From the NCBI GenBank assembly GCA_003650255.1, contig QMOP01000001.1, positions 1 to 33,051 of the forward strand: a stretch of 33,051 nt of DNA, read 5' to 3'. Shown piece by piece: positions 8,550 through 29,396 of the stretch (positions are counted from its first letter, which is position 1; every line of letters starts with the position of its first letter). Origin of the DNA: Caldisericota bacterium. GTDB taxonomy: Bacteria > CG03 > B21-G15. The position numbers and the translations under genes were made by a program. The notes beneath the pieces were generated by a model. The model worked only from the letters and a program-made list of their open reading frames with translations. It ran no database searches and had not been told where the DNA came from.

Positions 8550-8580
8550 TTTTTTTACTAAAAAGGTTTACTATAAAAGT

Positions 8581-10413: not shown

Positions 10414-10415
10414 AA

Positions 10416-12917: not shown

Positions 12918-12926
12918 GAGGTTGTC

Positions 12927-13394: not shown

Positions 13395-13403
13395 GGAGGG
13401 AGT

Positions 13404-14285
13404 ATGAGGTATTTGGTTTATTGTGTTTTGATTTTTTTGGTTTCCTCCTGTAGTAAAAAGAATAAACTTCTTGAGAATACTCTTGAGATAATAATTTCTC
13501 CATCATCAGTTTCCATTTCTACCGGAACAAGTATAGAACTTACAGCAACAGGAAAAAGTGCAAAAAGTGATAATGTTGATATTGATCCTGTGTGGTCTGT
13601 TACAAACAATCTTGGAACCTTTACACCTGATAAGGGAAAAAAGGTCATATTTACTGCTGGAAATTCTGCTGGAAGTGGTGTGATAAGAGCTACTGAAGAG
13701 GATGTTTATTCGGAAATACCGCTTACTGTTAAAGCCGGTACAGGTGGAGGAGGAACTGGAGGAGGTAGTGTTGTTTTTTATAGTGATTCTGGATTAAATT
13801 CTGATTTTGGAACTCCTGACATTTTTACTTGGGCAGAAAATAATGACATATCTGCTCAAGAGATAACAGATGGAAATGGTCCATCAGGGGATTCTTCCAG
13901 TTATCAGAGTTTTTCTTCGAATTCCTCTACTTGGTTTGGGGGTGGTATAGTTCTTAATAAAGTTAGCGGAAATGCTTCAGCTGTTGACTTATCTGCTTAT
14001 TCTTCAGGGAACTCACTTAAATTTTATATAAAACTTACTAGACAGCTTTCTGGTTCTGAACAGATTAAGGTGGAGATAGAGTATGGTTCGGGTTCAAAGT
14101 CAACATTGTATCTTTCCTCTTCCTATGGATTTGACAGCACAAGCACAAACTGGCAGGAAATAACGATACCCCTTACAGATTTTACAGGGGTGGATTTCAG
14201 TTCAATTAAGCTTCCATTTGAGATTACAGCAGAAAATATAACTTCTTCTTTAACTTTTTACTGGGATTATGTAAGATGGGAATAA
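13404..14285 (+). CDS. Lipoprotein: Big_2 (bacterial Ig-like) domain + Gly-rich linker + CBM-like beta-sandwich
   Basis: Lipobox LVSSCSK. Big_2-like pattern IIISPSSVSISTGTSIELTATG...WSVTNNLGTF...GVIRAT. Linker GTGGGGTGGG. The C-terminal domain has WFGGGIV, SLKFYIK, WQEITIPLTDF and FYWDYVRWE. Confidence 0.6.
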   Translation: MRYLVYCVLIFLVSSCSKKNKLLENTLEIIISPSSVSISTGTSIELTATGKSAKSDNVDIDPVWSVTNNLGTFTPDKGKKVIFTAGNSAGSGVIRATEEDVYSEIPLTVKAGTGGGGTGGGSVVFYSDSGLNSDFGTPDIFTWAENNDISAQEITDGNGPSGDSSSYQSFSSNSSTWFGGGIVLNKVSGNASAVDLSAYSSGNSLKFYIKLTRQLSGSEQIKVEIEYGSGSKSTLYLSSSYGFDSTSTNWQEITIPLTDFTGVDFSSIKLPFEITAENITSSLTFYWDYVRWE

Positions 14286-15704: not shown

Positions 15705-16925
15705 TTGAAAAGGCGAAAAATAACTTTCCTTCTTCCTTCAATTGCCGGCTTTTATACAAAGGATGTAATAGAAGAAGAAATAAAGATTTTTAGAAGAAAA
15801 AAGCCTGATATAAGTGTAGAGGTTCACATACTTTCTTGGACCAAACTGTGGAGTATGTTGGTTGATATAATGAAAAGAAGAAAAACAATCCCCTCTCCAG
15901 ATATAATTGCTATAGGAAATACATGGCTTGGAACAGCTTTGTATTTTGAATTACTTATTGATATTTCCAAATTTACCTCGTTTTTTTCTGAGAAGGTTTT
16001 TTTGCCAAAGCTTGTTAAGAATAAAATAGTGCTTAAATATTCGGTCCCATGGATTTCAGACATAAGGGTTTTATATTATAGAAAAGATATTCTTCAAAAG
16101 ATTAATGTTGATGAGTCTGAAATTAAAACAATAGATGGGTTTGTCAAATCCTGTGAGAAGATAAAAAAAGAGATTAAGGATATTTATCCATTTGCTATTT
16201 CTGGACAGAAAGAGGAGATTTTAATCCACGATTTATTTCCCTGGCTTTATATAGCAGGTAATTTTTATAGAAGGGTGGGGAACAAAATAAGATTTTTCTC
16301 AGAAAAGGTGTATGAGGGAATGAGGTTTTATTTTGCCCTTGTCAGAGACTATTATATTCCCTATCGTTTGAAGCTGAAAGTGGCGCCTCCAGGAAATTTT
16401 TTTACAGGAGATTATGCATTTCAAGTTTCTGGTACCTATCCTAAAAAGAGTATATTCAATAAAAAACACTCTGAATACAGAGAGAATGTTGCTAAAAATT
16501 TTGGAGTTTCTTTTCTCCCTTCAACTAATGGAAAAACACCAGTTACATATATAGGAGGAATAAATCTTGTAGTTCCATATACTGCAAAAGATGTTTCCTC
16601 ATCTCTTGAATTTATAAAATTCCTTATCTCTCCAGAGTCTCAGCTTAGATGTGTTTCTTCTCTTAGCATGCTACCTGCCAGAGTTGATTGTTTTGAGAAG
16701 TTCTTTACTGAAAATGAAGGAGAGATAAAGAAGGTATTTTTGGAATCTTCAAAAAAGGGAAAGACCTTAAGTTGCGTCCCGCTTCTTGGGACAATTGAAA
16801 AGATGGTTTCATATTTTACCACTTCTATTTTTAGGTTAATGCTTGAAAGAAAATATAATGAGGAAATACTCAGAAAGAAGGTAATTCAGCTTATAGAGGA
16901 GATAGATTTTATAGAAAGATGGTAG
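15705..16925 (+). CDS. Family-1 solute-binding-protein-like protein without a recognisable signal peptide or lipobox (candidate cytoplasmic ligand sensor)
   Basis: TTG start. 406 aa with SBP-like layout (KITFLLP as first strand, GNTWLG, ISDIRVLYYRKD, GGINLVVP). By eye it aligns from residue ~6 onto the mature part of the 2486 SBP. 7-nt overlap with the GGDEF gene. Confidence 0.55.
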   Translation: MKRRKITFLLPSIAGFYTKDVIEEEIKIFRRKKPDISVEVHILSWTKLWSMLVDIMKRRKTIPSPDIIAIGNTWLGTALYFELLIDISKFTSFFSEKVFLPKLVKNKIVLKYSVPWISDIRVLYYRKDILQKINVDESEIKTIDGFVKSCEKIKKEIKDIYPFAISGQKEEILIHDLFPWLYIAGNFYRRVGNKIRFFSEKVYEGMRFYFALVRDYYIPYRLKLKVAPPGNFFTGDYAFQVSGTYPKKSIFNKKHSEYRENVAKNFGVSFLPSTNGKTPVTYIGGINLVVPYTAKDVSSSLEFIKFLISPESQLRCVSSLSMLPARVDCFEKFFTENEGEIKKVFLESSKKGKTLSCVPLLGTIEKMVSYFTTSIFRLMLERKYNEEILRKKVIQLIEEIDFIERW

Positions 16926-18358
16926 AAGAAGTAATTTCTAAATTTTTGAAAGAACTTGAGAGAAATTTTTATTCTCTTGAGAGACTTACAGAAGTATCTC
17001 TTGAATTTCTACAGAGAGTATCTGGAAGTAGGACTGTTGGAATTTTTCTTTCATCCCCTGAAGAAAGGAATGTCTGGAGGATGAAGAAAATAATTCATTT
17101 AGGGAAATTTGTCGAAGGAGAAGAGGAGATAGATTTGAGAGAAGGAGTTAACAGGCAGTTATTAAAACTGAAAAGGAGAGAAAAAAAGTATTTTATCAAG
17201 AGTTATAAAGATAGCTTTTATCTTTACTTTCCTCTTGGTGATGGGGAAGTTATAGGCTGTTTAAGATTTGTAGATGACAGGAAGAGGAGGAAGGGTATCT
17301 TTTCAAAATTATCAGAGATAGAAGTGCTTGCATATATTATAGCGAGTTATATGAATAAGCTATTTTTGTGGGAAGAAGCACAGGTAAGAAGTAGAATGCT
17401 TGGTAGTTTTATGAAGCTTTCAACAATTCTTACTAAGGAAAAGTATTTAAGAGGAATTTTAAGAGAGATAATATATGAACTTGAAGAAAGTTTCAGATTT
17501 GATTTCATAAGAGCATATTTCATAGATAAGGAGGAAAGGAGTATTTTCGGTTTTATAGGTATTAACTGGAAGAGGGAGATTCAGGATATTTCCCATTTAA
17601 AAATTTTTCTTGATGAAGAGGAGAACAGGCTTTCAGAGTATGTTAAGTCGGGAAGTGAATTTAAGATTTATGATGAAGGATGTTCATTATACTTATCACT
17701 TAAGAGTAAAGGTGAAATTTTTGGCATATTAGAAGTGAGTAATATATACTCTCAGGAGAGAATAGATGAAGGAACTATTAATTTCCTGAAGTCATTTTTG
17801 AATCACATTAATTTTGCCATTGAAAAAGCCACTCTTTTCGAAGAGATAGAGAGATTATCCTTAAAGGATGGATTAACAGGGCTTTATAACATAAGGTATT
17901 TTAAAGAGAGAGTTAAAGAGGAAATAGAAAGGTCAAGAAGAAACAATCTCTGTTTCAGTATGGTTATGATTGATCTGGATAATTTTAAGAAGATAAATGA
18001 CAGTTTTGGACACAGTACAGGGGATAAAGTTTTAAAGTTTTTTTCAGAAGAGTTGCAGAAAAATATGAGAAAAAGTGATGTCATTTGTAGATATGGCGGA
18101 GATGAGTTTTTAGTGCTTTTACCGAGAGTGAATATTGGAAAAAGCAATTTCATGAAAGAAAGGATAAGAAAGGTTTTATGTAAAGAGATAAGGATAGGTA
18201 ATTTGAAAGTAAGTATTTCAGCCAGTATAGGAGGAGTGGTTTTTCCATTTGATGGGGATACAGTTGAGAAGCTTTTTGAGAGAGCAGACCATGTTTTATA
18301 TAAAGTTAAGAGGAAAGGGAAAATGGATTTTAGGTTATTTAGTGAAGATGCAAGATAA
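16919..18358 (+). CDS. Soluble GAF-domain diguanylate cyclase (GGDEF) with intact I-site
   Basis: The C-terminal GGDEF domain has DGLTGLYNIRYF and IDLDNFKKINDSFGH, with an active site RYGGDEF (GGDEF codons at 18095-18109). RKSD (18068-18079) lies 5 residues upstream, matching the RxxD inhibitory site. The N-terminal ~300 aa are GAF-like, and there is no TM segment. Confidence 0.9.
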   Translation: MVEEVISKFLKELERNFYSLERLTEVSLEFLQRVSGSRTVGIFLSSPEERNVWRMKKIIHLGKFVEGEEEIDLREGVNRQLLKLKRREKKYFIKSYKDSFYLYFPLGDGEVIGCLRFVDDRKRRKGIFSKLSEIEVLAYIIASYMNKLFLWEEAQVRSRMLGSFMKLSTILTKEKYLRGILREIIYELEESFRFDFIRAYFIDKEERSIFGFIGINWKREIQDISHLKIFLDEEENRLSEYVKSGSEFKIYDEGCSLYLSLKSKGEIFGILEVSNIYSQERIDEGTINFLKSFLNHINFAIEKATLFEEIERLSLKDGLTGLYNIRYFKERVKEEIERSRRNNLCFSMVMIDLDNFKKINDSFGHSTGDKVLKFFSEELQKNMRKSDVICRYGGDEFLVLLPRVNIGKSNFMKERIRKVLCKEIRIGNLKVSISASIGGVVFPFDGDTVEKLFERADHVLYKVKRKGKMDFRLFSEDAR

Positions 18359-18413: not shown

Positions 18414-18448
18414 TTTACTGATAGGAATTTAACGAGGAGGTGATGAAG

Positions 18449-19111
18449 ATGAAGGAGAAAATTCTGACTGCTGTATGTATGGTTTTTCTTGCTGGATGTT
18501 TAGCTAAAAAAGAGGTTGTGAAGGAGGAGTTTGTTCCAGAAGCTCAACAGATGAGTTCAGCCCAGCAGGAGTCAGGATATAAAGGGTATGCTGTTCAGTT
18601 TCCTTTTTATGTTTACAAAGATAGAACATATCGTGGTAACCATTACATTCCAAGCGGTTGGATGGGAGATTATGGAGATATAAAGTTGAATGAGAATTGC
18701 CGGGAGAATCCTTATTCAGGAAAAACATGTATTAAAATTGTCTATACTGCAAAGAAATCCCAAGGAGCAGGATGGGCAGGAATTTACTGGCAGAATCCAG
18801 CAAATAACTGGGGGACTGTTAAAGGAGGATATGATTTGACAGGATCAAAAAAACTTGTTTTTTATGCGAGAGGAGAAAAAGGGGGAGAGGTTGCTGAATT
18901 TAAAATGGGAGGAATACAGGGTGAATACAGTGATACAGATATGGCAACTACAGGTCCGATTGTATTGAGTAAGAAATGGAGAAAGTATGAGATAGACCTT
19001 ACAGGACTTGACCTTTCTTATATTTCAGGTGGTTTCTGCTGGGTGACCTCTTCACAGGATAATCCTGAAGGATGCACGATATATCTTGATGAGATAGTAT
19101 ACATTAAATGA
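18449..19111 (+). CDS. Lipoprotein with CBM-like beta-sandwich domain
   Basis: The ORF opens at GTG 18440, and in-frame ATGs lie at 18443 and 18449. The ATG at 18449 has the best spacing to the RBS. Lipobox FLAGC. Motifs are GWMGDYGDI, GWAGIYWQNPANNWG, LVFYARGEKGGE, WRKYEIDLTGL and CTIYLDEIVY. It is a close paralog of the N-terminal domain of the next gene. Confidence 0.55.
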   Translation: MKEKILTAVCMVFLAGCLAKKEVVKEEFVPEAQQMSSAQQESGYKGYAVQFPFYVYKDRTYRGNHYIPSGWMGDYGDIKLNENCRENPYSGKTCIKIVYTAKKSQGAGWAGIYWQNPANNWGTVKGGYDLTGSKKLVFYARGEKGGEVAEFKMGGIQGEYSDTDMATTGPIVLSKKWRKYEIDLTGLDLSYISGGFCWVTSSQDNPEGCTIYLDEIVYIK

Positions 19112-20397
19112 TATTCATCTTTCTGATATTGTATTTAAAGGCAATTGATTATTTTTACGTATACTCATCATGTAAAGATGAAATAAACAGGTTCTCTCCC
19201 TCAGGCTTTATGGGAGATGTAAATGATTTCTACCTTACACATGATTATAAAATTCGTTCGCCTTTAAAATGTTCAAGAGGCAGTTTGAAAATTAAATATG
19301 AACCAAAGGGTGAAAAAGGATGGGCGGGTATTTATTTCCTTCATCCGCCAAACAATTGGGGAAATATAAGAGAAGGGTATAATCTTACTGGAGCAACAGA
19401 AATAATCTTTTATGCAAAGGGTAAGAAGGGCGGTGAAAAGATTTCTCTTATAAAAATAGGAGGTTTAACAGGAAGGTATCCTGACAGTGATACCATGCAG
19501 ATTGGGCCACTTCGCCTTAGTAAAAAATGGAAGAGATTTACAATTGATATTTCAAAGATGAATTTAAGATATATCGCAGGGGGGTTCTGTGTAATTCTTA
19601 AGAAGGAGGATAATCCAAAGGGATGTACGATTTATCTTGATGGAATTGCATATAGAGGTGGGAGAATATATGCTTTAAAGACCCTTGGTGATGATGTCCC
19701 TCCAAAACTTAGTATCAAACTTTCATCAAATGAGTTAAATCTTGGAAAAAATCTTGATATCTTCTTGGAAGCAAAGGATAATAGAGTTGTTAAAGAGTGG
19801 AGTTTAAAGATTTTAAATCAGGAAAGGAATGAAATTAAAATTTGGCAGGGATCTTCAGATCCCCCAAAAAAGATTATCTGGGATGGAAAGGATGATATAT
19901 ATAAAAAGTATGTTCCATCTGGAGAATATACATTTATTTTTAAAGCAAAAGATGAAGCAGGAAATGTTTCAGAGGTTCAGTCAAAGGTGGTGGTAAAAAA
20001 GAAAGAGAAAAAGGAGTATAAAAAGATAAAGATAGTGGAAAGCGAAAAGGGTTTAAGGGTGAGATTGAAATCAGACATTCTTTTCGGAATAGGAAAATAT
20101 AAGTTAAAGAAGGAAGTTTATCCTATTCTTGATGAACTTGTTGAACTTTTAAAGGAGTATCCAGAGAATAAAATTTTAATAGAAGGACATACTGATAGTG
20201 TGGGTTCAGAAGGTTATAATTTAAAACTTTCAATTAAAAGGGCTAAAGAGGTCAGGAATTATCTTGTAAAAAAGGGAATAAGTAGCGAAAGAATAAAGGT
20301 AGTAGGTTATGGTGAGAAAAAACCAATAGCATCAAATAAGACAAGACATGGAAGAGCACTTAATAGAAGAGTTGAGGTGATAATATTAAAGAAGTAG
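19108..20397 (+). CDS. Envelope protein: CBM-like domain + Ig-like (FlgD-Ig-type) domain + OmpA C-terminal peptidoglycan-binding domain
   Basis: ATGA overlap with the upstream gene. The N-terminal domain has GFMGDVNDF, GWAGIYFLHPPNNWG, IIFYAKGKKGGE, WKRFTIDISKM and CTIYLDGIAY. The middle has IIWDGKDDIYKKYVPSGEYTFIFKAKDEAGN. The OmpA_C motifs are EGHTDSVGSEGYNLKLSIKRAKEV and NRRVEVII. Confidence 0.8.
   Translation: MIFIFLILYLKAIDYFYVYSSCKDEINRFSPSGFMGDVNDFYLTHDYKIRSPLKCSRGSLKIKYEPKGEKGWAGIYFLHPPNNWGNIREGYNLTGATEIIFYAKGKKGGEKISLIKIGGLTGRYPDSDTMQIGPLRLSKKWKRFTIDISKMNLRYIAGGFCVILKKEDNPKGCTIYLDGIAYRGGRIYALKTLGDDVPPKLSIKLSSNELNLGKNLDIFLEAKDNRVVKEWSLKILNQERNEIKIWQGSSDPPKKIIWDGKDDIYKKYVPSGEYTFIFKAKDEAGNVSEVQSKVVVKKKEKKEYKKIKIVESEKGLRVRLKSDILFGIGKYKLKKEVYPILDELVELLKEYPENKILIEGHTDSVGSEGYNLKLSIKRAKEVRNYLVKKGISSERIKVVGYGEKKPIASNKTRHGRALNRRVEVIILKK
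20378..20386 (+). promoter_or_regulatory. Possible extended -10 promoter (TGaTAATAT) inside the 3' end of the OmpA-like gene, positioned to start transcription just before the riboswitch
   Basis: TG at 20378-20379 and TAATAT at 20381-20386. The predicted start near 20393 lies ~6 nt 5' of the aptamer. No good -35 was seen. In an AT-rich genome such matches are frequent. Confidence 0.3.
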
Positions 20398-20398
20398 T

Positions 20399-20480
20399 GG
20401 GAAAAAGGCAAACTCCGGGTGACCGGAGGACGCAAAGCCACGGATCCTGATATTCTGTCAGGATAGCCGGGCTGCCCCGA
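20399..20480 (+). promoter_or_regulatory. c-di-GMP-I (GEMM-I) riboswitch aptamer
   Basis: GC-rich island in an AT-rich gap. It has GGCAAAC; a hairpin CUCCGG(20413-18)-GUGA-CCGGAG(20423-28) with a GNRA loop; GACGCAAAGCC (20429-39); a second hairpin AUCCUGA(20444-50)/UCAGGAU(20458-64) flanked by CGG/CCG with a bulged AG; and GCCGGGCUGCC. The order and core strings match the Vc2-type consensus. The SD AAGGAGG lies at 20485-91 and the ATG at 20497. Confidence 0.85.
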
Positions 20481-20496
20481 GGAAAAGGAGGTGTTT

Positions 20497-21165
20497 ATGA
20501 AGAGGATTCTTCTCGGAGCAATTGTCTGCTTTGCTTCCTTCGGGGTTCTTTTTTCTTTCACATCTCAGGGAATTTCAACAGTTACAGCTACTGCCGAGCT
20601 TACAGGGGAAGGTATTGTTCAGATGAGTATTGAGATTAAGAATGTTTTGACACATTCAACTACAACTCAAATTTACTGGTCAGGAATTACACTTCCAACT
20701 GGATGGGAAGTGGCAGATAGTTACATCCTTCTTCATTCAACAATTACAGCTGCATCAGGTGGAATAAGGATTTACACTGACAACAAGTCAGCAGATGCAA
20801 ATCCGCAGTATACAGGGTCAGATAGTGGAGGAGGACTTGTTGATACCTCGGATACAACAAAAAAATTGCCTATAGGATGGAAAATTACAGAGGATACAAC
20901 AACAGTTAGTGCTGCTGATCCGGATAGTGATAGTAGCTGGTTTTATTTTAAAGACAAAAGTGATTCTGATTTCTGGATCAATGCTGATACTCAAGATTAC
21001 TCTACAGTGAAGAAAGCAGATGGGATTCATTATAATCAGGGTTCTTCAAATTATGGAGGAGGAACCTCTCCAGATGCAATATACATGGAATGTAATTTCA
21101 CGAATGCTGTAACTCCGAGGACATACAAAACTTCCACAATTCGAATAGAGGCATTTATACAGTAA
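20497..21165 (+). CDS. Secreted protein of unknown family (candidate surface fibre/adhesin subunit), first gene downstream of the c-di-GMP riboswitch
   Basis: I prefer the ATG at 20497, 5 nt after GGAGG, over the GTG at 20491. Signal peptide MKRILLGAIVCFASFGVLFSF. T/S/D-rich mature protein. It shares a ~190-aa domain with the 21921 protein (LPTGWxVAD, IYTDNxS, GLVDTSxTTKxL, YFKDKxxSDF, NAVTPRTYKT). Confidence 0.5.
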   Translation: MKRILLGAIVCFASFGVLFSFTSQGISTVTATAELTGEGIVQMSIEIKNVLTHSTTTQIYWSGITLPTGWEVADSYILLHSTITAASGGIRIYTDNKSADANPQYTGSDSGGGLVDTSDTTKKLPIGWKITEDTTTVSAADPDSDSSWFYFKDKSDSDFWINADTQDYSTVKKADGIHYNQGSSNYGGGTSPDAIYMECNFTNAVTPRTYKTSTIRIEAFIQ

Positions 21166-21213
21166 GAAGTTAGTTTATATAAGAAAGAGTTTTAAAAAGG
21201 AAAGGTAGATAAA

Positions 21214-21924
21214 ATGTGGATATTTTCTAGTTTATTCTTATATTCACTTCTTGCAATGTCTGTTACTCCAGCAAAGTATGAGTTACTTCTTTCCACAGGA
21301 GAAAGAAACACCATTTATTTCACCGTCAAAAATGATAAATTAGAAATGATGAAAGTAAGGGTTAATTCTAAATACTGGTTTGTTTTACCGGAGAATAAAG
21401 GAATAGAGATTGATTCATGGTTGAGTTTTAGTCCAAAAGAGTTTTATTTAAAGAAAGGAGAGGGAAAAAGGGTTATATGTGAGGTTATTGTTCCTAAGAA
21501 TGCTAGTGGGTTCTTAAATGGAATGCTTTCATTCAATCAAATTGATTCTCCAACTTCCGTTAATATCACCATAAGTGTTCCTGTTTATATTATAATAAAG
21601 GATAACTATTCCTTTGATTTTGAGGTTAGGGGACTTAAGAGGGAAAATGAATATCTTCTTGTTGAGATTTTTAATAAAGGAAATGTTTATTTTAGACCAA
21701 GAGGAAGGATAAAAATGAATAGAGAGAGAAATTTTTTAATTTTTAAGAAAAAAAGTTTTCTATTTGAAAAAAGATTTAAAGAAGAAAGACATATTTTTCC
21801 TGGTAGTAGCGGATATGTTAAACTGGGAAATTTGGGTTTAAAAGATGGAAAATATGAGGTTATATTGGAACTTGAGTTTTGGGGAGATAAAAAAATAAGG
21901 AAGAAAATAGTGGTTTTGAAATGA
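21214..21924 (+). CDS. Secreted two-domain Ig-fold-like protein (possible PapD-like periplasmic chaperone); function unknown
   Basis: Signal peptide. The mature start VTPAKYELLLSTGERNTIYFTVKNDKLEMMKVRVN has the strand pattern typical of pilus-chaperone or DUF916-type Ig domains. A second beta-rich half follows. This is a weak pattern-based call. Confidence 0.3.
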   Translation: MWIFSSLFLYSLLAMSVTPAKYELLLSTGERNTIYFTVKNDKLEMMKVRVNSKYWFVLPENKGIEIDSWLSFSPKEFYLKKGEGKRVICEVIVPKNASGFLNGMLSFNQIDSPTSVNITISVPVYIIIKDNYSFDFEVRGLKRENEYLLVEIFNKGNVYFRPRGRIKMNRERNFLIFKKKSFLFEKRFKEERHIFPGSSGYVKLGNLGLKDGKYEVILELEFWGDKKIRKKIVVLK

Positions 21925-22997
21925 TTATTCTTTTTCTTTTTTTGTTTTTTCTTTATCCAGAGATTTTAACAATCTACAATGATGAGGGGATATCAGGGGA
22001 TAATATCTACACATGGAATGATGGGGGTGCGGATTATGATGGAAGTTCGCAGGATCTGGAATCTGTTCCAGAAGGGTTTAAATGTTTTAAGACCACAGCG
22101 ACCTCTGGAAGTTATGCTGGATGGGGAGTTTTTTACAATACAGAGCAGGACTTTTCAGAATATCAAAATGGAGATTTGAGATTCTGGATTTACTCTTCAA
22201 CAGGGAATATAAAGGTTGAGATAGAAAGATGGAATGGTGAAACAGTGACAAAATATTTGAGTGATTATGGCTGGAATGATTCTTATGTTAATACTTGGAG
22301 ACTTTTTTCCATTCCATTAGATGATTTTGCAGTAGATATTACAACATCAGTGAAATCTCCATTTAAAATTACAGTCCTTACAACACCAGCAACATTTTAT
22401 ATTGATATGGTGAGATGGGCGGTTAATATTGATACCGGAAGTTTTAATTTAAAAATAAAAAGGATTTCAGATGATGTTGAAGTTTCATCGTTCACTTTTA
22501 CCAGGGTAAATTTAATAGGGCTTCCAACAGGATGGGTTGTTGCTGATCAGTATATAGAAATTGAAGTAGAACCTTCGGATATTTCCTGGGGAATACAGAT
22601 TTACACAGACAATGAGAGTCCCTCAGCAGACCCAAGATATACAGGAACAGAGGATCCAGCAGGTCTTGTTGATACATCGACTACAACAAAGAGATTACAA
22701 ATGGGCTGGACAATAGAATATTTAACCCATTCACTTTCAGAACTTGGAACAGGAGAGCCAGGAACTTGGGTAAATGGGGGCTATCAGTGGAAGTATTTTA
22801 AAGATAAAGCAAGTTCAGATTTTACAAATGGAGGAAGTTATGTAACTCCTTGGAATAATGAGGGTTTATTATGGAATACATGGCAGAGAGATTCAAAAAG
22901 TCCTCCAAATTATATTTATATAAGTGCGGATTTTTCAAATGCAGTTACACCAAGAACATATAAAACTAAAATTTTTGTAGAGTTTTATTATCAATGA
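21921..22997 (+). CDS. Secreted protein: CBM-like beta-sandwich fused to the same unknown domain as the 20497 protein (candidate tip or adhesin subunit)
   Basis: ATGA overlap with the upstream gene and an N-terminal signal. The CBM-like part has YAGWGVFY, DLRFWIYSSTGNIKVEI, WRLFSIPLDDF and FYIDMVRWA. The C-terminal half is paralogous to the 20497 protein, ending NAVTPRTYKTKIFVEFYYQ. Confidence 0.5.
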   Translation: MIILFLFLFFLYPEILTIYNDEGISGDNIYTWNDGGADYDGSSQDLESVPEGFKCFKTTATSGSYAGWGVFYNTEQDFSEYQNGDLRFWIYSSTGNIKVEIERWNGETVTKYLSDYGWNDSYVNTWRLFSIPLDDFAVDITTSVKSPFKITVLTTPATFYIDMVRWAVNIDTGSFNLKIKRISDDVEVSSFTFTRVNLIGLPTGWVVADQYIEIEVEPSDISWGIQIYTDNESPSADPRYTGTEDPAGLVDTSTTTKRLQMGWTIEYLTHSLSELGTGEPGTWVNGGYQWKYFKDKASSDFTNGGSYVTPWNNEGLLWNTWQRDSKSPPNYIYISADFSNAVTPRTYKTKIFVEFYYQ

Positions 22998-24127
22998 GAA
23001 GATTATGTTTTTTATTATTATTTTTTGAGTTGCCTCTACTTTCTTTTCAAACAATATCTTCTTATACAATTACAGCTTTTGTTCAATTTACTGTTGAGGA
23101 TTCAACTCCACCTGTAATAGATCATGAAGAAATAAAAAGGATTTCAGAGATAACGAGAATAGCAAGAGTTATAGCAACTTTTAGAGATGAAATTCAACTT
23201 TCAAAGGTGGGAATTTACTATTCATCATCTCCTTCAGCAGGTTTTTTGAAAAAGGAGTTTTCTCCTCAGACGACTTTTTATAGTATGAATGTATTAATAG
23301 AAAAGGAGATAATAAATCCTCCAACATTTTATTACAGGTTAATGGCTTTCGATGGAATAAACTATTCATATCTTCCCTCTTCCAGTTCCTGGTTTGAGGT
23401 TAAAGTAAATAGGATTGAATATTTCGATATTTCTTCATCTGGAGGAGAGATAATCCTTTATGATGGAAATTCAGAAGATGGAGAGTTAAGGTTGATTTAT
23501 CCTAAGAATGTAGTAGATGAGGATGTAAGATTAAAAATTGAGGAAACATCTCCTTTTGAGTTTAATGTGGAAAATGATGAGTTCCTCTGGAGAAATCCAG
23601 TATCAGTTTATTCTTTTCAACCAGATATTGATTTTAAAAGAGAGATAATATTAGAAGTTCCATATCAAGATGTGAATGATGACGGAAGGGTTGATGATGT
23701 GAATATTGAAGAGAGGAACTGTCAACTTTTCTTTTTTGATGGTTTTGAATGGAGATTTTGTGGTGGAGATTTGGATAGTAAGAAGAATATTATAAGAGTG
23801 AGGACAGACCATCTTTCAATTTATGGAGTTTTTCTTTTGAAAAAAATTTCAAAAAATCTTCTTAAACCAAAACAGAAATTTATTTCTCCTGGAGTAAAAG
23901 ACGGAGTAAATGATGAGATTGTCTTTGATGGACTTGATGATTCTAATACAGAAGTAAAAATCTTTGATTTGAGGGGAAGAATGGTAAAAAGGATAAAGGG
24001 GTATCCATATAAGTGGGATGGAAGGGATAAAAGGGGAAGATTGGTAGAACCAGGAGCATACATATATCAATATTTTCATCCTCTTTTAGATAAGAGAATA
24101 ACAGGTGTTGTAATTGTTGTAAGATGA
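22994..24127 (+). CDS. Secreted protein of unknown function with C-terminal FlgD-Ig/T9SS-CTD-like domain
   Basis: ATGA overlap with the upstream gene. Signal peptide MRRLCFLLLFFELPLLSF. The C-terminus reads EVKIFDLRGRMVKRIKGYPYKWDGRDKRGRLVEPGAYIYQY...GVVIVVR. Confidence 0.5.
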   Translation: MRRLCFLLLFFELPLLSFQTISSYTITAFVQFTVEDSTPPVIDHEEIKRISEITRIARVIATFRDEIQLSKVGIYYSSSPSAGFLKKEFSPQTTFYSMNVLIEKEIINPPTFYYRLMAFDGINYSYLPSSSSWFEVKVNRIEYFDISSSGGEIILYDGNSEDGELRLIYPKNVVDEDVRLKIEETSPFEFNVENDEFLWRNPVSVYSFQPDIDFKREIILEVPYQDVNDDGRVDDVNIEERNCQLFFFDGFEWRFCGGDLDSKKNIIRVRTDHLSIYGVFLLKKISKNLLKPKQKFISPGVKDGVNDEIVFDGLDDSNTEVKIFDLRGRMVKRIKGYPYKWDGRDKRGRLVEPGAYIYQYFHPLLDKRITGVVIVVR

Positions 24128-25005
24128 GATATTTAAAGAAGTTAATGGTTATATTGCTTTTCTCCAAACTTTATTCAGCATTTAATTATTTTCCAATTCC
24201 GTCAAGATTTCTATTTGCTGGAATTCCTGTTGATCTCAGAAATGATGCTGGAAGTATTTTCTCCAATCCAGCTGGACTTGATTCTCTTGTAACAAAACAG
24301 ATTGAAACTACATATTCATTGGCTTATCCAGAGATGGATGAAGATATATCAGGTTATACAGTTTTATCAGGTATGAGTTTAAAATTAGGTTTAGGAGTTG
24401 GAGTAGGTTTTTCCTATCTTGATGTTGATAGAATTTACAAAGAAAGTGAAATACTTATTGGAGCAGGCATAAAGGGGGATAGGATTCATTTACCGGTTTC
24501 AGTAGGTTTTAATTTGAAATTTCTAAAAAATAAATATATAATTGGTAAAAGGGAAGAGGGTGATATTGTGTTTTCAAAAGGAAAATTAATGAAAACGGTT
24601 TCAATAGATTTAGGATTTATTTTCAGAAAAGAAAAATTTTTAGTTTCCCTTTCTTTGAAAGATATAAATAGGCCAGATGTTGGAATTTATGAAAGTGTGA
24701 GGAAGAATTGTTCTATAGATTTTGATATCTCCTACAGAGTTTTTCCAGTGTATGAAGGAGACATTTCTTTTGGTTATCTGTATGAAGAAGGAAATAGTAG
24801 ATTCAGCGGAGGATATTCTCAGTATTTGTATTCAAATCTGGTAAGGGGGTATATCGGAACAAATCTGGATGCTGTTGGTCTGGCGATTTCAGTTGTTTTA
24901 CCATATCCTAAATTCAGTTTCACCTTTGAATATGGTTATTATTTTCCAATTTATTTAAAGGAGACATTAGGTGCCCATTCTATTAGTTTAAAGTGTGAAT
25001 TTTAA
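24124..25005 (+). CDS. Small outer-membrane beta-barrel protein (PorV/PorQ/FadL-like N-terminal NPAGL motif)
   Basis: ATGA overlap with the upstream gene and a signal peptide. Motif DAGSIFSNPAGL near the N-terminus. Alternating-hydrophobic strands throughout, ending SISLKCEF with a terminal aromatic residue. Confidence 0.5.
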   Translation: MRYLKKLMVILLFSKLYSAFNYFPIPSRFLFAGIPVDLRNDAGSIFSNPAGLDSLVTKQIETTYSLAYPEMDEDISGYTVLSGMSLKLGLGVGVGFSYLDVDRIYKESEILIGAGIKGDRIHLPVSVGFNLKFLKNKYIIGKREEGDIVFSKGKLMKTVSIDLGFIFRKEKFLVSLSLKDINRPDVGIYESVRKNCSIDFDISYRVFPVYEGDISFGYLYEEGNSRFSGGYSQYLYSNLVRGYIGTNLDAVGLAISVVLPYPKFSFTFEYGYYFPIYLKETLGAHSISLKCEF

Positions 25006-26101
25006 AGTGGGAAGGGATATAGTTGTAGAAGGATTGACAAAGTCCTTTTCTAAAGGTGTATATGGAGTTAAAAACTTAAATTTTAAAATAAAAGAAGGTG
25101 AGTTTTTTGTCGTTGTTGGACCAAGTGGTTCTGGAAAAACCACTTTTTTAAGATTGATAGCAGGACTTGAAAGACCTACTTCTGGAAAAATTTTGTTTGG
25201 AGATGAGGATATAACTCATAAAAATCCAAGAGAGAGAAAAGTTGCTATTGTTTTTCAGGAGTATGCAATTTATCCTCATCTTTCAGTATATGAAAATATA
25301 GCATTTCCATTAAGGATAAGAAAATATTCAAAGGATTATATTGATAGAAAAGTTAGAGAAGTAGCAAAGATTCTTGAAATAGAGAATCTTCTTTTCCGGA
25401 AACCAGATACACTTTCAGGAGGACAGAGGCAGAGGGTTGCACTTGGAAGAGCAATTGTGAAGGATGCTGAAATATTTTTATTTGATGAACCATTATCAAA
25501 TTTGGATGCAAAATTAAGGATTAGTATGAGGATAGAATTAAAAGAACTTCATAAAAGGATTAAGAAGACATTTATATATGTAACACATGACCAGAGTGAA
25601 GCAATGAGTATGGCTGATACAATATGTGTTTTAAAGGATGGTGAAGTTGTTCAATTTGGAAGACCTGACGAAATTTATAATAGACCAAAAAATCTATTCA
25701 CAGCAAAATTTTTTGGTGTTCCGCAGATGAATATTTTAAAAGGGAAGGTTAAAAATAGAGATGGAGAGATTTATTTTGATGAGGGAAGTGGATCCCTTTT
25801 AATTGATGGAAAGTTCAAGAAATATGAGAATGAGGAGATTTTACTGGGTATAAGGCCAGAGCATATATATGACAGATTGTATACCTCAAGACCTGAAAAA
25901 GGAACAACACTCATTGCCACATTTGAAATGATGGAAATTCTTGGGAAGGATTTTTATCTCTATCTTAACACAGGGTATCATAATATTGTTGTTAGAACAA
26001 CATATAAATCTGAAATTAAACCAGGGCAGGATATTATGATTGTATTTGATATGAAGAAGGCACATTTTTTTAATATTAAAACAGGAGAGAGAATTGATTA
26101 A
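24995..26101 (+). CDS. Sugar ABC transporter ATP-binding protein (MalK/MsmK/UgpC type)
   Basis: GTG start at 24995, with an alternative GTG at 25007. Walker A GPSGSGKTT, signature LSGGQRQRV, Walker B IFLFDEPLSNLD, H-loop YVTHDQ, and a C-terminal MalK-like regulatory/TOBE region. Confidence 0.9.
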   Translation: MNFKVGRDIVVEGLTKSFSKGVYGVKNLNFKIKEGEFFVVVGPSGSGKTTFLRLIAGLERPTSGKILFGDEDITHKNPRERKVAIVFQEYAIYPHLSVYENIAFPLRIRKYSKDYIDRKVREVAKILEIENLLFRKPDTLSGGQRQRVALGRAIVKDAEIFLFDEPLSNLDAKLRISMRIELKELHKRIKKTFIYVTHDQSEAMSMADTICVLKDGEVVQFGRPDEIYNRPKNLFTAKFFGVPQMNILKGKVKNRDGEIYFDEGSGSLLIDGKFKKYENEEILLGIRPEHIYDRLYTSRPEKGTTLIATFEMMEILGKDFYLYLNTGYHNIVVRTTYKSEIKPGQDIMIVFDMKKAHFFNIKTGERID

Positions 26102-27446
26102 TATACTTCTTCTTATCTGCATTTTGGTTATTATTTATTTGATTTATGTAAAGGGTTTATTATGTAAGAGAATTAGAGAGATGGAGATTGAAAAAGAGAA
26201 CCTTACAGAGAGGATCAATCAGAGAGAAGATGAGATGAAAGAGTTAATTAGAGAAAAGAATCTTCTTGAAGGAACTTTAAAAGAATTTAAATTTTTCAGG
26301 AAAATATCCTTTATTTTAGCAAGCAGTATTGAAATGAAAAGAATTTTAAATATGATTATAAATGAAGTAAAGGATAGGTTTGGATATGATGAGGTTGTTA
26401 TATTTTTGAAGGAAGGGGGTCGTGAGAGTTTTTTGCCTTTTCCAGAGAATAAAGTTTTTGAGGAGAGAGTTGTTAAAAAAGTTGAGGAGTCCTATAATAC
26501 AGGAAAAGTGAATATAGATTCAGAACTTGCATTTATTCCGCTTGAATCAGAAACAGAGGTTTTGGGAGTGGTATTTGTGAAAAAAAGAGGAGAGGTTAAA
26601 GAGGAAGAGATAAGAAAACTTATGCTTTATACCTCTCATGCTGTTCTTGCTTTAAAAAATGCAAGGAAATATGAACTTGAAAGGAATTTTAGAAAACTTC
26701 TTGAAGAGGAGGTAAGAATTGCAACAGAAAAATTGAGGCGGGCACAGGAGGAGTTAATAAAAAGTGAAAGACTTGCTGCTGTTGGTGAAATGGCTTCAAT
26801 TGTTGCACACGAGATAAGAAATCCAATGAGTTTTATAAAAATATGTATTGAAAGAGTAGCAAAGTATATGAAAGAACACCCTAGAGATTATAAATATGTT
26901 GATATGCTTTTTGAGGAGATACAGAAGATAGATAGAATTTCCGAAAATATGCTTATATTTGCAAAACCTCCCAAACCTAAAATTGAAGAATTTTTTTCAA
27001 AAGAGGTTATGGAGAAAGCAAAGTTACTTGTAAATAAAACATTGAGAAAAAATAATATTAAATTGAAGATAGAAATTGAAAACGTTAAGGTAAAAGGAGA
27101 TTTAAGTCAATTGCTTCAGGTATTTTTAAATCTTTTTCAGAACTCAATTTATTTTCTTAAAGAGTATAACGAGGAAGAAGATAGAATTATTGAGATTATT
27201 GGGAATAAAGGAGAGAGTTTTTTTGAGTATATTTTTACAGATAATGGTCCAGGGATTCCTGATGAAATTAGAGGTAAAATTTTTGAACCATTTTTTACAA
27301 CAAAGGCCCAGGGAACAGGTCTTGGTCTTAGTATTTCTAAGAGACTTTTAAATGAGATGAAAGGTGATATTTTGCTTAATCAGGGTTCTGGAAAAGGAGC
27401 GACTTTTAAAATTTTATTACCATTGGGAGGGAAAGATGGCTGTTAA
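26094..27446 (+). CDS. Membrane-anchored GAF-domain sensor histidine kinase
   Basis: TTG start, an N-terminal TM segment ([15 protein letters not shown]), a coiled coil and a GAF-like region. H-box [12 protein letters not shown]-box [11 protein letters not shown]1 DNGPGIP and G2 GTGLGLSI. Confidence 0.85.
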
Positions 27447-28179
27447 GGTTTTATTGATTGAGGATAACAAACCTCTTTCAGAGATTCTTAAAAATTCTCT
27501 CGAAGAAGAGGGATATGAGGTTGAAACTGCTTTTACTGCTGAAGAAGGATTGGAGAAGGCAGAAAGTTTTTTGCCTGATGTTGCTGTTGTTGATGTAAAA
27601 CTTCCTCACAGAGATGGTATTTCAATTATGAATGAACTTGTTTACAGAACATTTTATCCTTTACCGATAATTGTAGTATCAGTTATAAAGAGTGAAGCGG
27701 TTGTCCATGACGCTTTTCTTTTTGGTGCATTCTCTTTCCTCAAAAAACCATTTTCTGTTGAAGAACTTATAAAAGAGATTGAAAGGGCAGTGAAAGATGT
27801 AAAGGAGAGGAAGTATAAAAGAATTCTCATTATAGAGGATGATTTGGCTTTAGCAGAGATTCTTAAAGATGAACTTGGTAAAGAAGAAAACTGGAAGGTT
27901 GAAATTGCTGAAAATCTTAAGAAAGGAAAGGATTTAATTTCTCCTGTATTAGATTTGATTATTCTTGATATGAGATTTCCAAAAGGAGAAGGGACAGAAA
28001 TCATAAAGTTTTTACAGAGTAAACCAAGGTGGATACCTGTTATAATTTTTACAGCATATAAAGAGGAGTTCTTTCCAAAGGTGAAAGATGTAGAAGGTGT
28101 TTATTTTATGGAAAAGGATGGAAAAGTTGAGGATTTGAAGGAGAAGATAAAGGAAATATTTGAAGGAGGGCAGAGATGA
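27436..28179 (+). CDS. Tandem double-receiver response regulator without output domain
   Basis: I prefer the ATG at 27436 ([21 protein letters not shown]) over the ORF-track start at 27364, which lies inside the kinase gene. REC1 has VAVVDVKLP and KKP. REC2 has RILIIEDD, LIILDMRFP and IIFTAY. Confidence 0.85.
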   Translation: MAVKVLLIEDNKPLSEILKNSLEEEGYEVETAFTAEEGLEKAESFLPDVAVVDVKLPHRDGISIMNELVYRTFYPLPIIVVSVIKSEAVVHDAFLFGAFSFLKKPFSVEELIKEIERAVKDVKERKYKRILIIEDDLALAEILKDELGKEENWKVEIAENLKKGKDLISPVLDLIILDMRFPKGEGTEIIKFLQSKPRWIPVIIFTAYKEEFFPKVKDVEGVYFMEKDGKVEDLKEKIKEIFEGGQR

Positions 28180-28742
28180 AGAGGTGGCACATAAAATTCA
28201 AAACCACAGGAGAGGAAAGAGAGAATATTACAACAGAGGATTTGGTGTCTCTTCTTATTAGAAGAGAAATTCTTGAGGACGATTATATCTGGGATGAAAG
28301 AAATTCAAAATGGAAAGAAATAGGAGAAATTGAAGATTTTAAACCATTTTTTAGAGAGAGATATCCGGAAGGAAGGAAAAAGATTTTAATAATTGAGGAT
28401 GAGGATAATTTGAGAAGTTTTCTTGTTGAACACTTTCATTCCATTGGATATGCTGTTGTAGAAGCAAGGGATGGTTTAAGTGGATTTGAGAAGGTCAGGA
28501 AGGAGAAGCCGGATTTAGTTATTCTTGATATAAGATTACCAAAAATGAGTGGTTGGGAAGTGTGTAAGAAAGTAAAGATGGATAAGAATTATAAAAACAT
28601 ACCTATTCTTATGCTTACCTCAGAAAATGAACCTGTATCAGAACTACTCGGACTTTCGCTTGGAGCAGTGGAGTATATTACAAAACCATTCAGTCTTGAA
28701 GAGCTGACAAAAAAAATAGATAAACTTGTAAACTCTAAATAA
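28176..28742 (+). CDS. GYF_2-like N-terminal domain + receiver domain response regulator (no DNA-binding output)
   Basis: ATGA overlap with the upstream gene. The N-terminal ~60 aa read WHIKFKTTGEERENITTEDLVSLLIRREILEDDYIWDERNSKWKEIGEI. REC motifs are ILIIEDED, DLVILDIRLP, LMLTS and ITKPF. Confidence 0.75.
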   Translation: MKRWHIKFKTTGEERENITTEDLVSLLIRREILEDDYIWDERNSKWKEIGEIEDFKPFFRERYPEGRKKILIIEDEDNLRSFLVEHFHSIGYAVVEARDGLSGFEKVRKEKPDLVILDIRLPKMSGWEVCKKVKMDKNYKNIPILMLTSENEPVSELLGLSLGAVEYITKPFSLEELTKKIDKLVNSK

Positions 28743-28763: not shown

Positions 28764-28837
28764 GGGCGGGTAGCCCAGTTGGTGAGAGCGCTGCCCTTAC
28801 AAGGCAGAGGTCGGGAGTTCGAGTCTCCCCCCGCCCA
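28764..28837 (+). tRNA. tRNA-Val (anticodon UAC)
   Basis: 74-nt cloverleaf. Acceptor stem GGGCGGG/CCCGCCC with discriminator A. Anticodon stem CUGCC/GGCAG with loop CUUACAA. T-arm GGGAG-UUCGAGU-CUCCC. 5-nt variable loop. The D-stem GCCC/GAGC has one C-A mismatch. CCA is not encoded. Confidence 0.9.
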
Positions 28838-28847
28838 TTTTTAAGGG

Positions 28848-29396
28848 ATGAGGAGAGGAATTACAGTAATTGCAGGAAGATTTAGGGGAAGGAAACTTAA
28901 TTCTTTAAAAGATCCGATTCTAAGACCTCTTCTTGCAAGATCAAGGAAATCGCTGTTTGATATTCTTGGTAGTTTTGTTGAAGGAAAAAGTTTTTTAGAC
29001 CTTTATGCAGGAGTTGGAACAGTTGGAATAGAGGCGCTTTCTCGTGGAGCAAGTGAGGTTCATTTTGTTGAGTGTAATAAGAAGGTTTTGAGGGTTTTAA
29101 AAAAGAATATTGAAAAGTTGGAGGAGAAGAAAAGGGTGAAAGTTTTTGAGATGAGAGTTGAGGATTTTATAAGATTTTTTAAAAAAAAATATGATATAGT
29201 ATTTCTTGGACCACCATATAAAGATGGAATAAATACTGGAATTGTGGAAAAACTTGAAGAATTTTTAAATAAAAAATCTATTGTAATTTTACAGCATCAT
29301 GTAGGACAGAAACTCCCTTTAAAGATTGGAGAGAGATTGTGTTTGAAAAGAAAAAAAATTTATGGAAAAACTGCTTTGTCTTTTTACTCTTTCTGA
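28848..29396 (+). CDS. rsmD: 16S rRNA (guanine966-N2)-methyltransferase RsmD
   Basis: 182 aa. Motifs VIAGRFRGRKL, RPLLARSRKSLFDIL, the SAM motif LDLYAGVGTVGIEALSRGA, and FLGPPY (DPPY-type). Confidence 0.8.
   Translation: MRRGITVIAGRFRGRKLNSLKDPILRPLLARSRKSLFDILGSFVEGKSFLDLYAGVGTVGIEALSRGASEVHFVECNKKVLRVLKKNIEKLEEKKRVKVFEMRVEDFIRFFKKKYDIVFLGPPYKDGINTGIVEKLEEFLNKKSIVILQHHVGQKLPLKIGERLCLKRKKIYGKTALSFYSF

Follow-up and report, generated by a model that had tools for sequence, protein, structure and literature searches.

What does a cell build when a cyclic di-GMP (c-di-GMP) riboswitch aptamer is followed by five tightly coupled genes for exported proteins, two of which share a domain that lies outside every catalogued family? 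This question is raised by a contig of a Caldisericota bacterium (GTDB lineage Bacteria; CG03; B21-G15; GenBank assembly GCA_003650255.1, contig QMOP01000001.1), of which positions 1 to 33,051, read on the forward strand, are the window analysed here. The five genes, p1 to p5 (Table 1), encode a small subunit-like protein, a predicted chaperone, a larger subunit with a carbohydrate-binding-module (CBM)-like head, a putative base protein and an outer-membrane barrel. We conclude that the module combines known parts in a new way, with a subunit domain of an uncatalogued fold family at its centre. It is probably a c-di-GMP-regulated envelope module that binds glycans and depends on a PapD-like chaperone. 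In the full model that we propose, these proteins would form an usher-less donor-strand fibre with p3 as the CBM-bearing tip, p1 as the shaft, p4 as a base held by p5, and p2 as the chaperone, and we assign this model a probability of about 0.5.

An earlier sequence-only reading of this DNA had described an aptamer followed by five tightly coupled genes, and the Rfam match, the open reading frame (ORF) coordinates and the gene junctions all agree with it. ATGA overlaps are present at the p2/p3, p3/p4 and p4/p5 junctions; p2 has its own Shine–Dalgarno (SD) sequence, and p3–p5 are translationally coupled to p2. An N-terminal hydrophobic signal sequence was found on all five proteins. The strings LPTGWxVAD, IxIYTDNxS, GLVDTSxTTKxL, YFKDKxxSDF and NAVTPRTYKT, which had been reported as common to p1 and p3, do each occur in both. 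Downstream, a gene for a MalK-type ATP-binding cassette (ABC) ATPase overlaps the end of p5 by 11 nt and is followed by a histidine kinase gene and two to three response-regulator genes (24995-28742); the transcription unit probably extends past the five genes.

The domain shared by p1 and p3 is the centre of the module. Residues 64–222 of p1 align with residues 199–358 of p3 at 42% identity (E = 1e-34), which makes the domain ∼160 aa long; it ends at the protein C-terminus and is a beta-sandwich in the p1 model. The sequence-only reading could not place it, and our searches led to the same result. No match to p1 was found in Pfam or NCBIfam, 30 family members searched at E ≤ 10 gave nothing meaningful, and p1 matched no PDB sequence either as a single sequence or as a profile. 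Structure predictions were made for p1 and p2, and p3, p4, p5 and the upstream gene product u627 were characterised by sequence profiles. The AlphaFold2 (AF2) model of p1, predicted from an alignment of 30 sequences, is all-beta with a predicted local distance difference test score (pLDDT) of 84 and a predicted TM-score (pTM) of 0.79, with residues 15–28 below 50. Foldseek searches with this model returned nothing below E = 0.01 (best PDB match 0.06, best BFVD match 0.018). The weak top PDB matches are mostly subunits of donor-strand fibres (CanA, CfaE, FimI, HdaB, TasA and FimA), none of them significant. Filing the domain under pilins, WxL, TasA or CBMs was rejected since no Foldseek match fell below E = 0.01, and p1 was rejected as a lipoprotein or type V pilin since it has no conserved lipobox. 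These searches also gave no non-surface family for the domain.

An exhaustive profile search placed 689 clusters (50% identity) in the domain family at E ≤ 1e-3, with 499 at E ≤ 1e-10. The family has two architectures, small proteins of 230–290 aa and large proteins of 360–1478 aa with the domain last. In the best 150 matches, small and large alike, the domain ends no more than two residues from the protein C-terminus. The exceptions are four loci (related loci are given L numbers) from metagenome-assembled genomes (MAGs) labelled Planctomycetia. In the large subunit of these loci (L021, L023, L027 and L035), the p1-like domain comes first, and fused behind it at the C-terminus is a domain (...GC-x-IYLDD-[IV]-x-F) of the type found in p6, which is encoded upstream of the aptamer. 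This fusion functionally links the p6/p7 domain to the module. The p1-like domain also terminates very large proteins of 1051–2419 aa (L037 3365-10621, L043 3203-10462, L011, L018, L020, L034 and L039), which in Omnitrophota sit directly behind a riboswitch, and in two loci (L003, from 12346, and L013) the module is closely followed by separate giant genes (8336 and 11075 aa). Giant adhesins in general may use the domain as a C-terminal module for assembly or anchoring.

The constant companion of the shared domain is p2: where the flanks of a locus are long enough, it is found with a p1-type gene in virtually all cases. The suggestion that p2 is PapD/DUF916-like was borne out by the AF2 model and Foldseek, which agree, and by distant family members. 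The model (pLDDT 92.4, pTM 0.83) is predicted to contain two immunoglobulin (Ig)-like domains in the PapD/FimC arrangement. Its Foldseek matches include CfaA (E = 3.8e-12, TM-score 0.54–0.60), CsuC, Caf1M, DraB and FimC, all with probability 1.00, and the Enterococcus faecium WxLIP structures 9i25 and 9i1y (E = 6e-10); across chaperone-usher chaperones and WxLIP, E values range from 4e-12 to 1e-8. A single-sequence search with p2 found two proteins; with a profile made from the translated loci the number rose to 45, among them proteins to which JGI gives the name 'P pilus assembly chaperone PapD'. The most remote members carry PF06030 (WxLIP_PGBD, formerly DUF916), and this family is matched below threshold in four of nine p2 orthologues. 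Neither these nine orthologues nor p2 of the window matched Pfam PapD_N or PapD_C at E ≤ 1. At the start of domain 1, the first strand carries a P-x-R-x-E motif (Arg in 31 of 37 members, Lys in two), whose Arg corresponds to PapD R8 by pattern position alone; no counterpart of Lys112 was identified. A further conserved strand of the family, G-x-L-V-G-M-[VI]-S-F, has hydrophobic residues at alternating positions. All p2 orthologues carry a signal peptide, and a C-terminal transmembrane (TM) helix is absent throughout. In one further locus (L044 5153-9789), proteins of 244 aa and 661 aa, the latter with a faint dockerin match, flank a remote relative of p2 that matches PF06030 faintly; this looks like a more divergent small/partner/large arrangement.

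The N-terminus of mature p1 connects this protein with p4. This link is absent from the sequence-only reading, as are the analogy with WxL/Csc clusters and the larger glucan-utilisation supercluster with its SBP-GGDEF pair, both treated below. Across the p1 family it follows the pattern A-A-F-x-S-x-S-x-S-T-x-T-A-x-A-x-V-T-G, in which F21, S27, T28, T30 and A31 of p1 are invariant or nearly so. This strand-like extension is among the best-conserved parts of p1, yet its pLDDT is 39 for residues 21–30 and 70 for residues 31–40. A hidden Markov model (HMM) of the 20-residue stretch was searched against 1366 ORFs from the window and 45 loci and, after the p1 proteins, retrieved p4 orthologues alone (best E values 9e-4 to 3e-3). 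The reciprocal HMM from p4 N-termini retrieved p1 proteins (E = 3e-5 to 5e-3), and in both proteins the motif always lies just behind the signal peptide. The p4 HMM also found unlabelled proteins at the p4 position in L026 (258 aa, just before p5), L021 and L035, loci in which BLAST had not found p4. Large p3-type proteins have no such motif, and the family-profile match begins at position ∼44–50. Therefore, p1 has extension and domain, p4 has the extension without the domain and p3 has the domain without the extension, which is the pattern of shaft, terminator and two-domain tip in chaperone-usher systems. The A-A-F-x-S start of p1 may resemble the mature N-terminus of TasA.

The match of p2 to WxLIP brings in another explanation, in which p2 stays on the p1/p3 domain in a static, WxL-like surface complex, a non-filamentous CBM platform for which p4 and p5 are a separate or auxiliary anchor. 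WxL clusters encode a small domain-only WxL protein, a large one with the domain C-terminal behind binding domains, an LPxTG protein and WxLIP, whose two Ig-like domains are predicted to insert a strand into WxL (PMC9772566, PMC10599100), and WxL proteins bind cellulose and xylan (PMC9026416). The gene architecture of the module mirrors these clusters, WxLIP is among the top structural matches of p2, PF06030 appears weakly in p2 orthologues and in distant members, and the Omnitrophota loci consist of one large subunit and p2 only. However, p2 has no TM helix, unlike WxLIP, and the p1 domain shows no WxL character in largely PDB-based tests. PF13731 (WxL) gave no match at E ≤ 10 in 30 p1-family members; the p1 profile matched no WxL chain among the PDB chain sequences, which we assume to include 9i25; no WxL chain is among the best 50 Foldseek matches of p1 (E up to 1.8); and the dual WxL motif or DxRGTxAGWxL signature is absent from the p1 domain. 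The remote p2 relatives that bear PF06030 led to non-classical loci, and tblastn against plasmids gave one Deinococcus match. A static complex also leaves the extension of p1 and p4, absent in p3, unexplained, and p1 or p1–p2 units are duplicated in some loci. Although it is unlikely in our view, this is the explanation that survives best beside the donor-strand fibre.

For the fibre, the remaining proteins would supply a tip and a root. The division of p3 into a CBM-like half and a p1 paralogue, as read earlier, was upheld, with a CBM30-like domain at aa ∼20–165 and the p1-like domain at aa ∼175–358. A profile of the N-terminal ∼170 aa from eight orthologues matched the Clostridium thermocellum CBM30 structures 2c24 (E = 2.3e-4) and 1wmx (E = 2.8e-4), and the Pfam matches of this region (Exop_C, which is galactose-binding-like, CBM30, CBM_4_9 and CBM_11) are all sub-threshold. 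In p4, the signal peptide and p1-type motif are followed by Ig-like and ZU5-like middle domains and by CHU_C at aa ∼296–377. CHU_C is a C-terminal domain (CTD) of type B from type IX secretion systems (T9SS); the sequence-only reading had proposed an FlgD-Ig/T9SS-CTD-like domain for the end of this protein. Window p4 scores 32.4 bits against PF13585 (Pfam cutoff 27), and all 18 p4 orthologues match (best E = 1.2e-11). The window protein scores 25.4 bits for TIGR04131, under the cutoff of 35. The middle domain (aa ∼150–290) matches ZU5 in four of 18 orthologues (best E = 3e-4), and H-F-x-x-F-A-V-F (DHLSIYGVF in the window) stands at the end of the family consensus, a sequence reminiscent of the HFS site of autoproteolysis in ZU5-UPA proteins; judged from this sequence, p4 may cleave itself. 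The barrel p5 contains SNPAGL, and thus the NPAGL motif noticed before, and its family is of the PorP/PorV/FadL type. Window p5 scores 19.5 bits for PF11751 (cutoff 22.3) and is also sub-threshold for PorV_fam and T9SS_PorP_fam. PorP_SprF is matched by six of 16 orthologues (best E = 1.9e-9), the others matching TraF_2, UPF0164 or FadL better, and the p5 profile matches the PorV structure 6h3i (E = 1.4e-3). By analogy, p5 is the putative receptor and anchor of the p4 CTD.

These two proteins might also be read as part of an ordinary T9SS cargo locus, with p4 as the cargo, p5 as its partner, the secretion system encoded elsewhere, and p1–p3 as co-regulated periplasmic or secreted glycan binders. 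The CHU_C score above cutoff and the PorP/SprF-like matches fit this explanation, as do the adjoining OmpA-domain gene, which recalls PorP-PorE pairs, and the response-regulator-FlgD_ig and DUF5683 proteins in the window. Against it, the module occurs in Caldiserica, Elusimicrobiota, Goldiibacteriota and other phyla, with no Bacteroidota among 35 GTDB-representative loci, whereas reviews describe the T9SS as confined to Bacteroidota and the Fibrobacterota–Chlorobiota–Bacteroidota (FCB) group, and we found no literature linking it to the phyla of the module. None of the T9SS core genes (SprA/Sov, PorK/L/M/N and PorU/V) was seen in the 33-kb contig. Finally, p4 carries the p1-type motif and is syntenic and translationally coupled with p1–p3. 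A plain cargo locus is therefore improbable, and we return to p4 and p5 as the root of the proposed fibre.

How is the module controlled? The aptamer upstream of p1 is a GGC variant of the c-di-GMP-I class; in Rfam cmscan its score over model positions 1–80 of 80 is 72.7 bits (gathering score 59, E = 1.4e-15). It starts 1 nt past the stop codon of the upstream OmpA-domain gene p7 and ends 16 nt before the p1 ATG (20497). An antisense ORF of 84 aa (20307-20561, minus strand), which overlaps the aptamer and the p7 stop codon, was rejected as a gene because nothing supports it, and such an ORF is almost certainly artefactual, a product of the G+C-rich aptamer. In minimum free energy (MFE) folds, the aptamer 3′ strand (GCCCCGAGG) and p1 codons 4–8 form a hairpin that encloses the SD (GGAGG) and AUG. 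No terminator was found between the aptamer and the p1 AUG in the window. From these folds we infer ligand-ON translational control, with which the window platform is consistent; the case is weaker than in the terminator loci because an inner SD-masking stem does not rely on the aptamer.

In relatives, the arrangement is more direct. Of ten expression platforms examined, seven (from five loci) are intrinsic terminators that take the aptamer 3′ strand as their 5′ arm; in L015, L016, L022, L025 and L037 the stem so formed is followed by a U-run. Since the aptamer 3′ strand competes with the terminator there, ligand would block termination and turn the switch on. The statement that all five genes are riboswitch-gated thus stands in part: the aptamer controls a terminator in relatives, and in the window gating of all five is what we infer because the platform directly covers only the p1 SD and AUG.

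The association of the module with this riboswitch class recurs, as a survey of co-occurrence with GEMM-I showed. A c-di-GMP-I or c-di-GMP-I-GGC aptamer lies directly upstream of a p1-type gene in nine of 38 distinct loci (the window, L009, L015, L016, L022, L025, L036, L037 and L043), which span Caldiserica, Elusimicrobiota, Omnitrophota and MAGs labelled Clostridia. The canonical and GGC types occupy orthologous positions in different loci, which argues that both report the same signal; this interchange is indirect evidence on the physiological signal of the variant. Further aptamers of the c-di-GMP-I clan are present in some clusters (L015 1290-1426, L015 13913-13969 and L025 2492-2591), upstream of u627 in L015 and L025 (GGC variant) and also after p5. 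In these two loci the aptamer before p1 scores as canonical c-di-GMP-I, so that each cluster has two aptamer types, possibly tuned to different thresholds.

Conservation of the gene arrangement had been set beforehand as a test, and the five-gene order is kept across phyla. Metagenomic, MAG and single-amplified-genome contigs carry orthologues of p1–p5 with the gene order unchanged or almost so, and all five genes occur together in Elusimicrobiota, Caldiserica and MAGs labelled Clostridia. A GTDB scan, which used one genome per species and a single peptide pattern and is a sample rather than a census, gave 35 loci, mostly Elusimicrobiota/Endomicrobia, and otherwise Omnitrophota, Goldiibacteriota, Firestonebacteria and MAGs labelled Clostridia or Planctomycetia. 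By ORF-level BLAST, the invariant core is a p1-type gene with p2, in Omnitrophota and other phyla as well; p4 and p5 join it in Caldiserica, Elusimicrobiota and 'Clostridia'-type loci, where p5 has sometimes moved upstream. The large subunit varies from ∼360 to 2419 aa, with an extra domain behind the p1-like domain in some loci, and p1 and p1–p2 units are duplicated in some.

Table 1. Positions of the five genes, the riboswitch and the upstream genes discussed in the text (window coordinates).
Feature	Position	Strand	Description
SBP-like gene	15705-16925	+	SBP_bac_1-type, no convincing signal peptide; overlaps GGDEF gene
GAF-GGDEF diguanylate cyclase gene	16919-18358	+	Cytoplasmic; RYGGDEF intact
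p6	18440-19111	+	Lipoprotein-type; uncatalogued, highly conserved domain also in p7
p7	19108-20397	+	p6-type domain, Ig-like domain and OmpA_C peptidoglycan-binding domain; possibly a PorE-like role
c-di-GMP-I-GGC aptamer (RF03167, clan CL00126)	20398-20480	+	Rfam cmscan
Putative expression platform	20474-20519	+	MFE folds
p1	20497-21165	+	222 aa; start is the ATG after AGGAGG; small subunit, signal peptide
p2	21214-21924	+	236 aa; secreted two-domain PapD-like chaperone, WxLIP/DUF916-related
p3	21921-22997	+	358 aa; large subunit or tip-like adhesin, signal peptide
p4	22994-24127	+	377 aa; putative base/anchor protein, signal peptide
p5	24124-25005	+	293 aa; outer-membrane beta-barrel, PorP/SprF-PorV-FadL-TraF_2 superfamily

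Judged by its gene content, the window is a single-strand beta-glucan or polysaccharide utilisation locus. The first genes encode a phosphorylase of glycoside hydrolase (GH) family 94, an ABC importer for sugars, a GH2-like enzyme and a GH5 cellulase; two envelope proteins, u627 (beta-rich, outer-membrane-like) and u211 (a lipoprotein), and a response-regulator-FlgD_ig protein follow. Next come a prepilin-type protein, a DUF5683 protein, a protein resembling CBMs and surface glycan-binding proteins (SGBPs), another GH and the solute-binding-protein (SBP)-like and GGDEF genes, and then p6, p7, the aptamer, p1–p5, the MalK-type ATPase, the histidine kinase and the response regulators. GH94 adjoins the module in seven other loci. 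The order u627 - p6 - u211 - DUF5683 - CBM - (GH) - (p6-p7) - p1...p5 recurs in at least nine loci (the supercluster loci are L009, L012, L013, L015, L016, L017, L025 and L036), and the five genes are the 3′ part of this larger conserved glucan-utilisation supercluster, whose upstream part is at 8530-14285 in the window. Directly upstream of the aptamer, p7 is kept beside the module in several loci. The SBP-GGDEF pair recurs in L011, L034 and L038, where the module follows it directly; it is the probable source of the c-di-GMP signal, and the SBP-like protein and GAF-GGDEF cyclase are a candidate intracellular oligosaccharide sensor driving c-di-GMP synthesis.

u627 is a 627-aa protein of no family, with some orthologues fused to Ig and OmpA domains, and u211 has a CBM-like pattern. 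Profiles of u627 and of the p6 domain against PDB and Pfam were uninformative save for these OmpA/Ig fusions; the module lacks a channel or translocon in the outer membrane, and u627 is a candidate for this part. At 11051-12917, the gene for the 442-aa response regulator-FlgD_ig fusion overlaps that for a 183-aa protein with a prepilin N-methylation motif. Such a pair is unexpected in a glycan locus, and an export route of the type II or type IV pilus-like kind may lie behind it. A tRNA gene (28764-28837, 70.6 bits) is followed by two large right-handed beta-helix/NosD-like secreted proteins (29339-32984), which may be polysaccharide lyase- or hydrolase-like.

That the proteins instead form a periplasmic or inner-leaflet device, which captures imported cello-oligosaccharides on their way from an outer-membrane channel to the ABC transporter, would suit the position of the module between sugar ABC-transporter genes, the overlap of the MalK-type ATPase gene with p5 and the lack of an obvious translocon, but is very improbable, as PapD-like chaperones and type-B CTD/PorP pairs are known solely from surface assemblies, some family members are adhesin-like proteins of 1000–2400 aa and c-di-GMP riboswitches typically control surface adhesins.

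How could the parts work together as a fibre? The sugar-responsive SBP-like/GAF-GGDEF pair, encoded 2 kb upstream, would raise c-di-GMP. The ligand-bound aptamer would then keep its 3′ strand, freeing the p1 SD and AUG from the helix, and in relatives it would stop terminator formation, with the switch on in the presence of ligand. Sec would export all five proteins. In the periplasm, p2 would bind and stabilise the beta-sandwich domain of p1 and p3 by strand complementation, and subunits would join head to tail through the conserved N-terminal extension. Having both extension and domain, p1 would be the repeating subunit of the shaft. p3 would be distal because it has the CBM30-like head and no extension, and p4 would end the chain at the base because the extension is present and the acceptor domain absent. 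Here, p4 would donate the last strand and its type-B CTD would be held by the PorP/PorV-like barrel p5, while p7 may tie the complex to peptidoglycan. The assembly would thereby show a beta-glucan- or cellulose-binding head on the surface of the diderm Caldiserica cell. Pointers to this sugar ligand are the CBM30-like head of p3 and, in the window, the GH94, GH5 and GH2-like enzymes, the CBMs and the sugar ABC transporter.

Several observations weigh against this model. The module lacks genes for an usher, a secretin or any other obvious means of translocating folded subunits; in agreement with the sequence-only reading, family scans gave no usher, sortase or type IV pilus machinery in the module, and the usher family PF00577 was found neither in window ORFs of ≥ 100 aa nor, for six related loci, in the Pfam annotation of their called genes. 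By analogy with PorV and FadL, a p5-type barrel would be too small to pass subunits. The contig is 33 kb long, so T9SS components could sit elsewhere in the genome. The p1 domain has no significant structure or sequence similarity to any pilin, WxL domain or TasA, and the p1 monomer model looks like a complete sandwich. At the RNA level, the window platform masks the start of p1 alone, and no verification of the ligand of the GGC variant was found in the literature searched. Lastly, the Omnitrophota and 'Planctomycetia'-labelled loci have subunit and p2 without p4 or p5; anchoring by p4 and p5 is therefore not universal, and p2 and the subunit may instead form a static complex. We propose only tentatively that the module represents a pathway for pili or fibres that is independent of ushers, has not been described before and belongs to uncultured diderm phyla that branch deeply. 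Its PapD-fold chaperone would prepare subunits with a new fold for polymerisation by donor strands, and the fibre would have a CBM tip, a CTD/PorP root and induction by c-di-GMP.

The analysis gives some 700 clusters (50% identity) without Pfam, NCBIfam or PDB counterpart a testable role as the subunit or anchoring module of a chaperone-assisted surface assembly. It also places a PapD-fold chaperone and a type-B CTD/PorP pair outside usher systems and the T9SS, which bears on their evolution and on the minimal requirements of assembly. Through the proposed circuit, from SBP-like sensor through GGDEF cyclase, c-di-GMP and riboswitch to adhesin, attachment would be tied to the availability of polysaccharides in Elusimicrobiota, Caldiserica and Omnitrophota, three phyla whose cell biology has hardly been studied by experiment. 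If the model is true, the module is a c-di-GMP-induced cellulose grappling hook; its usher-independent fibre would link chaperone-usher pili, Gram-positive WxL clusters and T9SS attachment complexes, which have so far been kept separate, and the CTD-B/PorP anchoring pair would predate the T9SS or exist independently of it.

Literature searches found no published description of the module, and its parts are best understood beside the systems that they resemble. c-di-GMP riboswitches control gbpA in Vibrio, and adhesins and type IV pili in Clostridioides difficile. These systems have, like the module, a GEMM-I class aptamer upstream of surface-attachment genes and ON logic, here predicted. In contrast, the machinery of the module differs and its GGC variant lies between cistrons, directly after a stop codon. 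Chaperone-free donor-strand fibres (TasA of Bacillus, the CanA cannulae of Pyrodictium and archaeal threads) are built of jelly-roll or beta-sandwich subunits joined by an N-terminal donor strand right after the site of signal-peptide cleavage, a role proposed here for the p1 extension. However, they show no significant similarity to p1 (E ≥ 0.06, TM-score ≤ 0.33), and the module always has a PapD-like partner.

For the root of the assembly, the comparison is with the type-B CTD and PorP/SprF anchor of the T9SS (SprB-SprF and PG1035-PorP). In both, a CHU_C gene is immediately followed by a gene for an outer-membrane barrel, which in the module has PorP/SprF-like matches that are sub-threshold for window p5, with an OmpA_C protein nearby. 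The module differs in occurring beyond Bacteroidota/FCB and in that its CTD protein carries a subunit-type motif and lies inside a chaperone/subunit operon. For the chaperone and subunits, the comparison is with chaperone-usher pili (alternate CFA/I with CfaA, archaic Csu with CsuC), whose PapD-fold chaperones are the best structural match of p2. As proposed for the module, they have a two-domain tip without extension, a major subunit with extension and a terminating subunit, with the subunit domain at a free C-terminus. In contrast, the module has no PapD_N, PapD_C or Fimbrial Pfam matches, its subunit is not recognisably an Ig-like pilin fold, and its base is a CTD protein on a PorP-like barrel.

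The closest architectural analogue is the WxL/Csc cluster of Lactobacillales and Bacillales. Each system has a small domain-only protein, a large protein with the domain last, a partner of two Ig-like domains and an anchored component, and each is directed at plant polysaccharides, as predicted here for the module. The differences are that the hosts of the module are diderm; that p2 is without the C-terminal TM helix of WxLIP; and that the proposed anchor is a type-B CTD with an outer-membrane barrel, whereas WxL proteins are held by peptidoglycan binding or sortase. To this common plan the module adds the N-terminal extension motif and control by a c-di-GMP riboswitch.

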